From the sequence record OR844650: DNA of 64,000 nt; one strand, 5' to 3'. Position numbers and translations under genes: made by a program. The DNA comes from Escherichia phage ECO103 4-12-1. Below the pieces are notes generated by a model that was given only the letters and a program-made list of their open reading frames with translations, was not told the origin of the DNA and searched no databases. Shown one piece after another: positions 40,640-50,773 of the stretch (the stretch's first letter is position 1; every line of letters begins with the position of its first letter).

Positions 40640-41566
40640 TTAGAGTGAACTTAACAACAAATCTGCTCGGTTTGTAACTTGACGATACCATAAGGAATTC
40701 ATAATTTCTTTTTTAAATTTCTTAGGGTTATCATTTTTCACACTTTTCCAAAGTTTATTAAACGTTGCTAATTTATCAACACCCATTGTATAGGACATTT
40801 CATAAAGAATACGTTGTTGTTCTTTGGTCAGATTTACTGCTTCTTTTTTCTGCATCAATAATAAAAAGTCATTATATGTTCTTTTCATATCTTGCATTAA
40901 AAGTTTATTGGCTTGAGCTTTGGTAATACCGTTTCTGTACTTAATCGCATCAGATTCTTTTCTACCCAAATAATGCCCATAACCTATTGTATAATTACCT
41001 TTCATGTCCTTGTAGGGATGAAATTTAGAATTGTGGAAAGGAACTCCGACTTTCCCACCAAGTAAACGGCGTTTGTTCTTGGACTGAAATTCAATTGAAC
41101 CTTCAGCTTCTTTGATGTGATTGACAATTTCTGGATCATTATAATCAAACAGTACAGTCACATCTGGTAACAATACGTTCTTCAAATCCTCTTTTGTTGG
41201 GATAAAGATACCCTGAGAAGTATGAAGAGTAGCATTTAAATTGATATTTTTCAACAAAATAACATACTCTTCAAGTTGTACATTTTTAGGTTTAAACTTT
41301 TTAGCAATAGAATAATAACTATCACCAGGTTGAACCGTATAATGCTTCTCGCCGCGTGGAACATCCTTTGATATTTCTACCTTTGGTAATTCCTGCTTTT
41401 GAATTTGCGTAACTTGTGGTTTTAAATTGTGTACCTGACTTTCGTCCGATGATGATACACGATCATTTTGAGAAAAACCATAAAATCCAATCGCAGCGAC
41501 AAGTACTGTGCAAACTAGAACACCATAAGTAGTCTTAGTTTTCAGTGCTTTTTTCGCTTGTTTCAA
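40640..41566 (-). CDS. endolysin: N-terminal membrane anchor, LysM domain, GH24 T4-type lysozyme
   Basis: LysM YTVQPGDSYYSIAKKF; lysozyme blocks GNYTIGYGH and SLWYRQVTNRA; probable TTG start at 41566 after AAGGAGG (track start 41599 is also TTG). Confidence 0.8.
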   Translation of the reverse strand: MKQAKKALKTKTTYGVLVCTVLVAAIGFYGFSQNDRVSSSDESQVHNLKPQVTQIQKQELPKVEISKDVPRGEKHYTVQPGDSYYSIAKKFKPKNVQLEEYVILLKNINLNATLHTSQGIFIPTKEDLKNVLLPDVTVLFDYNDPEIVNHIKEAEGSIEFQSKNKRRLLGGKVGVPFHNSKFHPYKDMKGNYTIGYGHYLGRKESDAIKYRNGITKAQANKLLMQDMKRTYNDFLLLMQKKEAVNLTKEQQRILYEMSYTMGVDKLATFNKLWKSVKNDNPKKFKKEIMNSLWYRQVTNRADLLLSSL

Positions 41567-41682
41567 AACGCCTCCTTTGTTGATTGTTAAGATGGGCAAT
41601 CACAAAGATGGCAAAGAGGCCATTTGTAAAAGCCTCATCGGACTTTCTACAGTACAAAAACGTTCTTTTCAAATGTTTAAGT

Positions 41683-41710
41683 AGTATAGCATATTTTTAT
41701 TTTATTACAA
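41683..41710 (-). promoter_or_regulatory. putative sigma70-type promoter
   Basis: - strand TTGTAA-N16-TATACT upstream of the endolysin gene. Confidence 0.35.
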
Positions 41711-41734
41711 GACATATTTACTGTAAAAACCACA

Positions 41735-42145
41735 TTAATCGTAGTAAGTTCTACCTACAGTGATGTGATATTTAAAGTACTTGGTTGGTAGTCCTAGTTC
41801 ATTTCTAATATGTGTGATGAAATCATCTTCAAATTCAATGATAAAGAATGAACCTGGATTCTTTTTATCTTTTACTATCTCAATACAAGGATTGAACTTT
41901 ATCTTTACTTTCATTCCATCGTACTTTTTCCAGTACTCTGGATTTGGTGGCACTTCACCACGAACGATACTGACATGTGCTCCCCATTGTGGGTCTTTAA
42001 TATCAATATGTAAGTCAGTTCTGATGAAGTACTGGTAGTATCGAACCAACTGTAATGGAAGTTGTAGTACTAACCAGAAGTCCTTCTTCTTTTTCATAGT
42101 GCCACGTTCTGGATCATACACCAGAGTTCCTTCCATTTCAATCAT
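41735..42145 (-). CDS. 2H phosphoesterase-like protein (LigT/Acb1-like)
   Basis: Two H-x-[ST]-x motifs (HVSIV and HITVG) ~70 aa apart in a 136-aa protein. Confidence 0.5.
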   Translation of the reverse strand: MIEMEGTLVYDPERGTMKKKKDFWLVLQLPLQLVRYYQYFIRTDLHIDIKDPQWGAHVSIVRGEVPPNPEYWKKYDGMKVKIKFNPCIEIVKDKKNPGSFFIIEFEDDFITHIRNELGLPTKYFKYHITVGRTYYD

Positions 42146-42152
42146 ACGTTAC

Positions 42153-42356
42153 CTATAAAATTACATATATGTTTTTATTTTCAATACGAACATATGTTTC
42201 CAAAACATCTTTCGGAATTTTATTACTTGTTTTGAACCATGTAGTATTCTCTACTAAAACAAAAGTTTCACCTTCAGTTTCACCAAATGTACTTAGTGCA
42301 TAAATGAAGTAATTGGGTGATGCACTACAATATATATCAGCATTAATTTCAATCAT
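42153..42356 (-). CDS. hypothetical small protein
   Basis: Track start 42371 is TTG; ATG at 42356 used. Confidence 0.4.
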   Translation of the reverse strand: MIEINADIYCSASPNYFIYALSTFGETEGETFVLVENTTWFKTSNKIPKDVLETYVRIENKNIYVIL

Positions 42357-42360
42357 ACTT

Positions 42361-42492
42361 TTACACCACAATAAAACTTAATACAACAAGTGTAATAAAC
42401 ACACCCACAATAGCAGTCATTTCTGGGTTTGCATCATATGTATAGCGTATACATTTTAGAAAATCTTTACCAAATTTCTTTAGTCCATTCAT
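42361..42492 (-). CDS. small membrane protein (43 aa), not in ORF track
   Basis: ATG with AAAGGAAAA RBS; hydrophobic C-terminus AIVGVFITLVVLSFIVV. Confidence 0.3.
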   Translation of the reverse strand: MNGLKKFGKDFLKCIRYTYDANPEMTAIVGVFITLVVLSFIVV

Positions 42493-48671: not shown

Positions 48672-49070
48672 TTACATGTATACTTTTTTTAAATCCTTAG
48701 AACAACGATCAAAAATTGTGTTTATGAATTCAACATCTTCGATAATATTCGAATCGTTAGCAACATTTTCATTTCTTGTCGTGTTCCTATATGTGTGTTC
48801 AGGATGATTGTATACCACCTTGACTACATTATTTAGGTCTATAAAATTTGACGTTTTTTGCGTATATGAAGCCTGAAGCTTGATGAGTTTACCATCATTC
48901 TCAAGATTGGTTTTATGAATTAGTTCTTCAATACCAGTTAAATGGCTATAGCTATCTTTTTCTTTTACAAAAGTAATAGTAACAAGAACTGCTTTCTCAT
49001 CTCCCATATCGGAAATGTTTTTTACAGCACTGATAATTTCTAAGTTTGAAAAATCTAATTCTTTAAGCAT
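48672..49070 (-). CDS. hypothetical protein
   Basis: 132-aa ORF. Confidence 0.5.
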   Translation of the reverse strand: MLKELDFSNLEIISAVKNISDMGDEKAVLVTITFVKEKDSYSHLTGIEELIHKTNLENDGKLIKLQASYTQKTSNFIDLNNVVKVVYNHPEHTYRNTTRNENVANDSNIIEDVEFINTIFDRCSKDLKKVYM

Positions 49071-49071
49071 T

Positions 49072-49428
49072 TTACAAATATTTCCACAAAGTTCGATAAG
49101 TGATAATTTCTTCTCTGGTTACAGAAACTTCATTGCACTTAACACCATCAGTTTCATTACTGAATGGTTGTACTGGTCTATCTTCTGTTAAACCTCGTTC
49201 ATAAGTACAATGATAAAACTTATTTGTACTCATGTCAAGAAATACGAGATCAAATTCTTCAGTCCATCTTCTGTGCCCTTTGCTTTCATTGCAGATGATT
49301 TTATATTTTACATCTGGTTTAAAAGTTTCAGTACTGTCATCCCATGCACCATAGTCAGTATATTCATCATTTTCATCTAACTCTGCTAGATGCCACATTA
49401 ATTGTGGTAAAAAGATTTTAGATTTCAT
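49072..49428 (-). CDS. hypothetical protein
   Basis: 118-aa ORF. Confidence 0.5.
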   Translation of the reverse strand: MKSKIFLPQLMWHLAELDENDEYTDYGAWDDSTETFKPDVKYKIICNESKGHRRWTEEFDLVFLDMSTNKFYHCTYERGLTEDRPVQPFSNETDGVKCNEVSVTREEIITYRTLWKYL

Positions 49429-49480
49429 TTATTTTCTCCAAAAAAAAGGACTTGAATACTCAAGTCCTTATAATATCATA

Positions 49481-50092
49481 TCAATCATGTTTATTCAATT
49501 TCTTCTGTTCTTTTTTCAAAGCTTTCATATGACGACCAAACTCTCGAACATGCCATAGATGATCAGTTTCCCATAATTCTTGACGTAACCTACGTTCTTC
49601 TAGTAGTTTCGACTTGTCAATGTTATTTTTCTTTTTTTGTACATTAAAGAAATTATTCATATGTTCTTGGAGAAGATTACGACCTTTAACTTTCTCAAGA
49701 AACTCATCAACTGTTTCAGTTTTATTCGAACGTAGTTGATTACATCTGGAGCACATAGTATTAAAGTTTGACTCTAAATCAGGTCCACCCTTAGATGCCA
49801 GATGATTATGGTCAACTGTCATTAAAACTTCATAAAGACCACATACAGCATATACATTTAAATGTGGTTTACCATATACTGGATCAGAACAAAATGAACG
49901 TTCAATGCGTACTTCAGTGGCTTCAATCCCACATGCCACGCATTTTGGATTCTTAATAAATGTAAGAACTTTTTGTGGGAAATACCTAAAAGTAATTCCA
50001 TTTAAAGTGTAGCGTTTCATCTTAGTACTTCGTTGATTTAATTCGTCAAGAAGTGATAATTTTGTCGTATAGTAAACATGATATTTGTTCAT
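49481..50092 (-). CDS. HNH endonuclease (putative homing endonuclease)
   Basis: CVACG .. VDHNHLASKGG .. CSRCN HNH core; ATG at 50092 with AAGGAA RBS preferred over track start 50137. Confidence 0.7.
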   Translation of the reverse strand: MNKYHVYYTTKLSLLDELNQRSTKMKRYTLNGITFRYFPQKVLTFIKNPKCVACGIEATEVRIERSFCSDPVYGKPHLNVYAVCGLYEVLMTVDHNHLASKGGPDLESNFNTMCSRCNQLRSNKTETVDEFLEKVKGRNLLQEHMNNFFNVQKKKNNIDKSKLLEERRLRQELWETDHLWHVREFGRHMKALKKEQKKLNKHD

Positions 50093-50093
50093 T

Positions 50094-50402
50094 TTATTCC
50101 TTGATATTGATTTTAATATCTTTACCTTGTAAATCACGAATAGTTTTAATCAATGCGTCATGTTTTAAAGCACATTCATTGTAGACTGCATCCCAACGAG
50201 TAAGTACTTTAAGAATTTCTGCACCATCATAACCTTTAAAACCATTTTTGTCAATCATAATTTTTTGTGGTAGAGGTGTATCATCATCACATCTTTCTAA
50301 CAGAATTTCTTGTTTAATTGGAGCAGGGGATTGTAGTTTTACTTGTTCGGCACATCCACTTATAATTAAAAAAGAAATAAACGGAACTAATAATTTTTTC
50401 AT
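50094..50402 (-). CDS. outer-membrane lipoprotein, putative o-spanin
   Basis: Signal peptide with lipobox LIISGC; sits directly downstream of a TM plus coiled-coil gene. Confidence 0.55.
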   Translation of the reverse strand: MKKLLVPFISFLIISGCAEQVKLQSPAPIKQEILLERCDDDTPLPQKIMIDKNGFKGYDGAEILKVLTRWDAVYNECALKHDALIKTIRDLQGKDIKINIKE

Positions 50403-50773
50403 TTGAATTTATTCCTCGCAGCTTGAGAATTTTGTTTTAGTTCATTCAGTACTTTTACACCATCTTCATCTAAACATACATTCTTATAAACTTCACGTTC
50501 TACAATAAAAGGAACCTTTGTTTCAATAACTTTAGCATTATCTTCCATGATTTTTTTCGTTTCAAGGTAATTTTTTGCATTTTCTTGTTGCATTTTATCC
50601 AAGGCGGTATCAACTTTTTTAGCTATTTGTTGCTCTATGCTTTGTTGATAGCCACTGTAATAAGTATTAGCTTCCCAACCAGCATAAGCTGAACCGCCAA
50701 TTAATAATACAAAAGAAATTGGTTTCCAAAATGGAATAAGAATTTTTGAAACAATTATTTCTAACATACTCAT
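50399..50773 (-). CDS. putative i-spanin
   Basis: N-terminal TM helix then charged periplasmic region; 4-nt overlap with the lipoprotein gene. Confidence 0.5.
   Translation of the reverse strand: MSMLEIIVSKILIPFWKPISFVLLIGGSAYAGWEANTYYSGYQQSIEQQIAKKVDTALDKMQQENAKNYLETKKIMEDNAKVIETKVPFIVEREVYKNVCLDEDGVKVLNELKQNSQAARNKFK

Follow-up and report, generated by a model that had tools for sequence, protein, structure and literature searches.

Dispersed lysis genes in an Asteriusvirus: a predicted membrane-anchored LysM-GH24 muramidase, a spanin pair and a candidate T-type holin

We analysed the lysis genes in a 64,000-nucleotide (nt) stretch of DNA from Escherichia phage ECO103 4-12-1 (sequence record OR844650), called the window below, with most attention to the span 40640-50773. 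This span carries a 308-residue lysozyme gene, whose product joins a hydrophobic N-terminal segment to a LysM domain and a T4-type GH24 domain, and also a pair of spanin genes. The best explanation, which we hold with moderate confidence, is that they form part of a lysis set typical of Rak2-like phages, in which an exported, anchored muramidase would be triggered by a T-type holin, with the spanins completing lysis. The features of the lysozyme gene are as follows.

40640-41566, minus strand: 308-residue LysM-GH24 predicted membrane-anchored muramidase (PHROG 15410, Pfam PF00959, annotation of relatives)
41571-41577, minus strand: Shine-Dalgarno sequence AAGGAGG, 4 nt before the TTG at 41566 (read from the sequence)
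41474-41530, minus strand: predicted N-terminal transmembrane segment, residues 13-31 (TYGVLVCTVLVAAIGFYGF), after MKQAKKALKTKT (hydrophobicity)
41201-41347, minus strand: LysM peptidoglycan-binding domain, residues 74-122 (Pfam and AlphaFold2 model)
40649-41134, minus strand: T4-type GH24 catalytic domain, residues 145-306 (alignment, Pfam, Foldseek)

An earlier sequence-only reading of this DNA had described an enzyme with an N-terminal anchor, a LysM domain and a T4-type GH24 domain, and all three parts are present, as judged by Pfam, AlphaFold, Foldseek and the hydrophobic segment. Its open reading frame (ORF), 40640-41599 on the minus strand, was the right one but had been opened too early, at the first TTG in frame. 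Its correct start codon is a later TTG, at 41566, which gives the same 927-nt coding sequence as annotated in PBECO4 and phAPEC6. Orthologues are phAPEC6 gp293, PBECO4 gp040, 121Q gp532, CBB_187, GAP32 gp180 and RaK2 gp506, and relatives annotate the gene as a lysozyme or LysM protein. A tblastn search with T4 lysozyme (T4L) found just this one GH24 gene in the window. The protein matched Pfam Phage_lysozyme (PF00959) at 45.1 bits (cut-off 22.3; E 1.6e-11) and LysM (PF01476) at 22.4 bits against a cut-off of 20.9, the latter over profile positions 1-17 of 43 only. Its own family, PHROG 15410, was matched at E 1e-172, and a PDB profile search reached T4 lysozyme at E 7e-14.

The AlphaFold model of the lysozyme has a mean pLDDT of 75. 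Residues 1-66 were modelled at low confidence, with a short helix at 16-26, whilst the LysM domain (pLDDT 84-88) folds as beta-alpha-alpha-beta, with a strand at 74-77, helices at 84-91 and 98-108 and a closing strand at 119-122. The lysozyme domain was modelled at a pLDDT of ~90, and its top Foldseek matches in the PDB were all T4 lysozyme (probability 1.0; TM-score 0.61-0.66 relative to target).

An alignment of 36 family members has the same layout throughout: basic residues at 1-12, a conserved hydrophobic stretch at ~13-31, a variable linker rich in Ser, Gln and Pro, then LysM and GH24. The LysM consensus, YxVxxGDSxxxIA...N...P, is represented by conserved Y76, V78, G81, D82, I87, N109 and P123. 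In the GH24 domain E155-G156, D187 and T193 are invariant. The motif YKDxxGxYTIGYGH aligns with T4L residues 17-31, and D187 and T193 thus correspond to D20 and T26. E155 was assigned as the catalytic Glu from its AEG motif, located where the first helix of the model ends, like E11 of T4L. The Glu-Asp spacing is 31 residues compared with 8 in T4L, and a conserved, family-specific insertion of 23 residues lies between the two.

Searching 5.8 billion proteins recovered 69 full-length homologues of 290-334 residues at 43-99% identity; those on long contigs came from assemblies of ~350 kb, and the weaker matches were LysM-only proteins, including LysM-amidases. Since the architecture is kept in all 69 homologues, it is not a chance feature. 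An exhaustive hidden Markov model search of 1.84 billion cluster representatives (50% identity) gave 12 clusters at E <= 1e-30, below which there were only generic GH24 lysozymes, matched over the C-terminal half, and multi-LysM proteins. These searches point to a small, tight clade.

To rate the N-terminal segment we used the Hessa biological hydrophobicity scale (19-mer sum) and the Kyte-Doolittle (KD) mean. The best 19-residue segment of the window lysozyme scored +1.1 kcal/mol (KD 1.86), compared with +0.5 kcal/mol (KD 2.07) for the signal-arrest-release (SAR) domain of P1 Lyz, +0.8 kcal/mol (KD 2.11) for that of R21 and -2.5 kcal/mol (KD 2.63) for the lambda Rz anchor. The median of the 36 family members was -0.1 kcal/mol (KD 2.09), and some members have a Glu inside the segment. 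By these scores the segment is predicted to be marginally hydrophobic and SAR-like, and weaker than a strong signal anchor. The signal anchor proposed by the sequence-only reading thus stands as an N-terminal hydrophobic transmembrane segment but not as a strong anchor. The segment, residues 13-31, is the only hydrophobic one, and as five Lys and no acidic residue come before it, an N-in orientation is predicted. The basic N-terminus and single marginal segment are conserved in the aligned members. Export without a holin, which the same reading had deduced, is a reasonable inference from the Lys-rich N-terminus and transmembrane segment, and would be Sec-dependent.

A Lys-rich n-region followed by a hydrophobic stretch is also what a cleavable Sec signal peptide would offer, in which case a free periplasmic LysM-lysozyme would be restrained by the energised membrane, like oenococcal Lys44. 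The linker between the transmembrane segment and LysM, otherwise variable and disordered, contains a conserved IQKQ motif (residues 53-58, 41401-41409) in which I55 is invariant and Q56 and K57 are kept by at least 90% of sequences. The motif may serve for processing or for an interaction, and processing would suit such a release. The hydrophobic stretch, at 18-19 residues, is however long for an h-region, and no Ala-X-Ala-type c-region follows it (GFYGF, then SQNDR), which argues against cleavage. A transmembrane domain had also been predicted with TMHMM in earlier work (Buttimer 2017; PMC5259590). We regard a cleaved signal peptide as very unlikely and an uncleaved anchor as the better description.

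Two candidates for the holin were compared.

Outside the window (phAPEC6 gp172, 99.2-99.9 kb; fEgEco12 g406): T4 T-type holin homologue
43762-43986, minus strand: 74-residue ORF with two transmembrane segments, the probable holin candidate of the sequence-only reading (PHROG 22328, function unassigned)

The T-like protein is absent from the window but was found in 70 of the 70 Rak2-like records searched; in phAPEC6 its gene, gp172, lies 122 kb from the lysozyme gene (222.1-223.0 kb). The authors of fEgEco12 annotated the 220-residue protein as a holin through an HHpred match to the T4 holin structure (PMC13070987 supplement). T-like proteins are 220-239 residues long, and the model has a transmembrane helix at 2-34 and an alpha/beta domain of ~170 residues at 52-219. 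This is the T-type layout of one N-terminal transmembrane segment and a globular domain of ~170 residues in a total of ~218. PHROG 860 'holin' was matched at E 7.4e-4, and Foldseek matched the periplasmic domain of T4 holin T (6px4, 6pxe and 6psk) at E 2e-5 to 1e-4 and TM-scores of 0.54-0.61. Aligned by hhalign with ten T holins from T4-, T5- and Vibrio-type phages, the T-like alignment scored 92% probability (E 6.4e-7) over 179 columns, from the transmembrane segment to the C-terminus. Against the single T4 T sequence the probability was 1.9%, which is uninformative; only the ten-holin alignment was informative. The T-like protein had no Pfam match and nothing was found for it in a PDB sequence search.

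The 74-residue protein has the build of a holin or pinholin that might trigger the anchored endolysin. It is small, with charged termini and a hydrophobic hairpin of 47 residues (19-65) forming two adjacent transmembrane segments, either M1 or M6, both ahead of a KK motif, could be its start, and its conservation extends to 43 records, RaK2 among them. No holin family was matched in Pfam or PHROGs, however, and none of the 43 records labels it a holin, the annotation being 'hypothetical' or 'membrane protein' throughout. The gene adjoins neither partner: unrelated genes separate it from the endolysin, at 2.2 kb, and from the spanins, at 6.1 kb. The C-terminus of the protein is acidic. It was detected only in Escherichia, Salmonella and Klebsiella members and not in Cronobacter, Pectobacterium, Erwinia, Yersinia, Serratia or Xanthomonas relatives; among phages in which it is undetectable, GAP32, CBB and those of Erwinia, Yersinia and Xanthomonas still have the T-like protein, the spanins and the endolysin. 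The assignment of this ORF as holin is thus probably wrong, and there is little chance that it is the trigger. The predicted T-type homologue would be the better holin candidate on these comparisons.

Beside the T-type gene of fEgEco12, and outside the window, PHROG 21209, a relative of the T-like protein, was matched over its N-terminal half by one of two short ORFs (g404-g405) and over its C-terminal half by the other. The two have the look of a tandem paralogue of the putative holin that is split in E. coli Asteriusviruses.

The spanin pair lies at the far end of the span.

50399-50773, minus strand: i-spanin, 124 residues, N-terminal transmembrane segment and helical periplasmic part (PHROG 1152, RefSeq, Kongari 2018)
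50094-50402, minus strand: o-spanin, 102 residues, lipobox ISG/C17 with Ala at +2 (ATGA overlap, PHROG 2425)

The sequence-only reading had paired a transmembrane protein with a lipobox lipoprotein as putative spanins, and the pair was borne out by a PHROG match, a lipobox and overlapping genes. The i-spanin matched PHROG 1152 'Rz-like spanin' over residues 9-122 (E 6.6e-29); its hydrophobic N-terminus is ILIPFWKPISFVLLIGGSAYAGW, and RefSeq labels it Rz-like spanin. The o-spanin matched PHROG 2425 at E 1.8e-24 and, weakly, Pfam LysC/Rz1-like (E 0.019). Its start overlaps the i-spanin stop by 4 nt (ATGA) and it has its own Shine-Dalgarno sequence, GAGGA. The lipobox reads L-I-I-S-G-C17 and is followed by Ala18, so sorting to the outer membrane is predicted. 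Homologues of the o-spanin were found in 69 Rak2-like records, several of which annotate both o-spanin and i-spanin; the o-spanin label appears in the Munch, SE_PL, K64-1 and Muenster records. The spanins of PBECO4 and 121Q have been placed in the 'separated' class, with an i-spanin family of their own and an o-spanin family shared with GAP32 (Kongari 2018; PMC6139136).

An HNH homing-type endonuclease gene (49481-50092, minus strand) begins 2 nt past the o-spanin stop. The run of ACP, i-spanin, o-spanin and HNH genes has terminator-like hairpins at both ends, at 51289-51266 and 49469-49446.

From these parts the following course of lysis may be proposed. The 308-residue enzyme would be a type II (N-in, C-out) membrane protein whose marginal N-terminal segment is inserted by Sec, placing the linker of ~40 residues, LysM and the T4-type muramidase in the periplasm without a holin, where the enzyme would accumulate. 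Once the phage holin, for which the T4 T-type homologue ~122 kb away is the likeliest candidate, depolarised the membrane, the enzyme would be freed or activated, either by SAR-like release of the weak transmembrane segment or by loss of a restraint exerted by the proton-motive force. The i-spanin/o-spanin complex would finally fuse the inner and outer membranes. The genes for these steps are indeed dispersed, as the sequence-only reading had said: spanins and lysozyme, which it put ~9 kb apart, are separated by 8.5 kb containing ~20 unrelated ORFs, and the T-type homologue is more distant still. The e, t and spanin genes of T4 are also scattered. Dispersal in the Rak2-like phages appears to mirror this and would not be surprising in a distant T4 relative.

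Several observations weigh against this proposal. Small residues (Gly, Ala, Ser and Thr) make up a fraction of 0.37 of the N-terminal segment, compared with 0.53-0.63 in P1 Lyz and R21. The segment lies neither within the catalytic domain nor against it, as one controlling the fold of a SAR endolysin would, but, unlike in the characterised SAR endolysins, ~110 residues away, across the disordered linker of ~40 residues and LysM, and the periplasmic part of the enzyme has no Cys. Known controls of SAR endolysins are disulfide caging in P1 Lyz and refolding in R21; with this separation and no periplasmic Cys, neither can apply here. On the holin side, the Foldseek matches to T4 T sit among many generic GAF-like folds, several records label the T-like protein a 'structural protein', and the T-type holins of T4- and T5-like phages usually sit with soluble endolysins. 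Lastly, the same genomes encode a second T4-type lysozyme, soluble and of 162 residues, which is muralytic in vitro and has not been confirmed in virions.

This last point allows another reading, in which a canonical pair of T-type holin and soluble, T4-E-like 162-residue lysozyme carries out lysis and the anchored enzyme is accessory or has a different purpose, acting perhaps as a redundant second endolysin or in remodelling peptidoglycan locally. T-type holins elsewhere keep such company, and the purified UE-S1 version of the 162-residue enzyme, LysUE1, is muralytic (PMC12805682). Among Rak2-like phages its CBB homologue, CBB_239, was not confirmed as a virion protein (PMC5259590). Its gene lies outside the window, as the LysUE1 primer sequence had no match there and the T4L tblastn search returned only the anchored GH24 gene. 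In Asteriusviruses it is found between a gp25-like baseplate gene and an 887-residue hub/lysozyme gene. That position is in keeping with this reading, but a baseplate module rather suggests a structural or entry role, and the failure to find the protein in virions carries less weight than it might, mass-spectrometry coverage being incomplete: the adjoining gp25-like protein is likewise unlisted in phAPEC6. A T-type holin need not imply a soluble partner either, for in P1 a SAR endolysin exists alongside a canonical holin.

The anchored enzyme, for its part, is conserved across the clade with its catalytic triad intact. Analysis of phAPEC6 virions found the 96-kDa tail lysozyme Gp241 but not Gp293, the orthologue of the window enzyme (PMC7247149), an absence that fits a role in lysis. 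CBB_187 has been said, anecdotally, to have seemed toxic on induction (Buttimer 2017; PMC5259590). Because it is conserved, catalytically intact, missing from virions and toxic on induction, and because the 162-residue gene sits in a structural module, the anchored enzyme is more likely to be the main endolysin than the 162-residue lysozyme. We consider lysis by the canonical pair unlikely. The sequence-only reading had spoken of 'the endolysin'; the anchored lysozyme is there, but with a second muralytic lysozyme in these genomes its standing as sole or main endolysin is a hypothesis.

It is also possible, though we doubt it, that both enzymes act, the anchored one as a non-classical SAR protein. 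It would then be a tethered muramidase that reaches the wall through its flexible linker, or one freed at IQKQ, working in parallel with the soluble T4-E-like lysozyme and the T-type holin. If true, this would amount to dual-endolysin lysis in Rak2-like jumbo phages, with a control logic that has not yet been described. We nonetheless favour an exported, anchored muramidase that acts as the endolysin under control of the T-type holin.

The identity of the phage agrees with the Gram-negative host that the sequence-only reading had drawn from the spanins, as the nearest matches are phages of E. coli and Salmonella. Over 40000-51000 the identity is 99.5% with Escherichia phage SP27, 99.2% with phAPEC6 and 98% with PBECO4, and the 11-kb region with the lysozyme gene has 97-99.5% DNA identity to 121Q, PBECO4, SP27 and phAPEC6. 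In all, 42 phage records were matched by 40000-51000. Twenty of these were full-length matches at >90% identity to jumbo phages of ~310-385 kb infecting E. coli or Salmonella, and the more distant ones were Yersinia, Cronobacter, Xanthomonas and Erwinia phages. By these matches the window is placed in Asteriusvirus, within the 'Rak2-like' jumbo phages (~350 kb, E. coli).

Upstream of the spanins, 50800-52700 is 100% identical to phage slurp01. The interval from the ACP gene to a nucleotidyltransferase gene (51247-51431) is 185 nt in the window compared with ~3.4 kb in most relatives, where it encodes PBECO4 gp063, a 'tail protein', or phAPEC6 Gp314, a putative tail fibre detected in virions. 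The short form contains a hairpin and a perfect TTGACA-17-TATAAT at 51319-51291, and is shared by slurp01 (100% identity), UE-S1 and ph0011. Sigma-70 promoter-like consensus sites in 39500-52000 numbered 73 compared with 71 expected from shuffles; with no enrichment, no conclusion on the timing of expression is drawn. For the T4-type late-promoter octamer TATAAATA, ~11 copies were expected in the 64 kb from shuffles but just one is present. This copy (60809-60816, minus strand) is just upstream of an 898-residue ORF (58078-60774) and not near the lysis genes.

Directly downstream of the lysozyme is a gene for an HPF/RaiA-type ribosome hibernation factor (40291-40623, minus strand; Pfam Ribosomal_S30AE, E 3.3e-10). 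Just upstream, a 136-residue gene (41735-42145, minus strand) matched Pfam 2H-SAK (2H-phosphoesterase) weakly, below the cut-off (E 1.4e-5), and a PDB sequence search with it returned chance matches only. The fEgEco12 authors labelled it an Acb1-like anti-CBASS nuclease from HHpred (PMC13070987 supplement).

The span also holds a candidate structured RNA between the lysozyme and spanin genes.

48040-48620, minus strand: candidate structured RNA of ~500 nt, in the gap 47982-48671 (fold, conservation, covariation)

The gap, of ~690 nt, is flanked by ORFs at 47553-47981 and 48672-49070, contains no credible ORF and is unannotated in RefSeq. Folded as a single minus-strand sequence, the candidate was far better than shuffles (z = -6.0). 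DNA searches found the element in 70 of 70 Rak2-like records, at 4-5 places per genome, and even the phages of Cronobacter, Erwinia, Yersinia and Xanthomonas show 66-72% identity over ~480 nt; all eight copies inspected lie in gaps without a real coding sequence. Its long invariant blocks are broken by replaceable hairpins. A consensus fold built on 21 distinct copies has 84 pairs in 17 helices, including long-range ones. Paired cells made up 97.9% of this consensus, compared with 86% after column shuffling and 37-41% with slid partners, and compensatory double changes were seen in 39 pairs compared with 6-12 in slid controls. A promoter-like GGGACA-16-TGnTATAAT is present by the candidate at 48670-48643, and near 48120-48150 there is a covarying hairpin with a T-run after it. 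No Rfam 15 family was matched at gathering or permissive thresholds, and ARAGORN found no tRNA. A 16-mer scan of IMG/VR gave 47 loci, where we presume ~40 chance matches from the size of the database; nhmmer confirmed 28, all but three on contigs of 340-380 kb. Of all that the span contains, this multi-copy RNA candidate is probably the most novel. It is of more value than the lysis findings and deserves a finding of its own.

Much of the lysis apparatus has been described before. CBB_187 was named as a predicted endolysin with homologues GAP32 gp180, 121Q gp532 and RaK2 gp506, with a transmembrane domain at the N-terminus, a LysM-like domain for wall binding and a lysozyme at the C-terminus; the authors commented that Gram-negative phages do not usually have such a wall-binding domain, pointed to SAR endolysins and suggested a mechanism of that kind (Buttimer 2017; PMC5259590). 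We found nothing in the literature beyond that study on experimental work with this endolysin. Both the architecture of the endolysin (2017) and the spanin pair (2018) are thus already published, and as stated the lysis findings matter little, since the phage has been sequenced many times and its parts are in the literature. Added here are the mapping of the catalytic residues, the 23-residue insertion between Glu and Asp, the hydrophobicity comparison and the small size of the family. How these proteins work would be of some value for engineering endolysins against Gram-negative bacteria.

Among known systems, the closest are the Rak2-like endolysins themselves (CBB_187, 121Q gp532, GAP32 gp180 and RaK2 gp506). 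The window protein is an orthologue in the same family, with no substantive difference from them.

By prediction, the enzyme also resembles the SAR endolysins P1 Lyz, R21 and phiKMV gp45, which are GH24 muramidases with a weakly hydrophobic N-terminal transmembrane segment after a basic N-terminus, and for which Sec export without a holin is expected; the SAR mechanism was reportedly set out by Xu et al. 2004. Unlike these, the window enzyme has a disordered linker and LysM between the transmembrane segment and the catalytic domain, no periplasmic Cys and fewer small residues.

T4 (e, t, pseT.3/pseT.2) likewise has scattered lysis genes, a T-type holin (here by homology), a T4-fold muramidase and a two-component spanin pair whose genes adjoin without one being embedded in the other. 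The E enzyme of T4 is soluble and has a single domain, whereas the window enzyme has a predicted membrane anchor and LysM, and in the E. coli members the T-like protein, as annotated, has almost no cytoplasmic N-terminus, unlike T4 T. As in lambda Rz/Rz1, a type II inner-membrane protein and an outer-membrane lipoprotein, both predicted here, are encoded together, but the window genes are 'separated', with their 4-nt overlap, rather than embedded, and the sequence families differ. Finally, phiKZ gp144 and EL gp188 are, like the window enzyme, endolysins of Gram-negative jumbo phages with an N-terminal peptidoglycan-binding module. Theirs is of the PG_binding_1 type, joined to a lytic transglycosylase without a transmembrane segment, whilst the window enzyme combines LysM with GH24.

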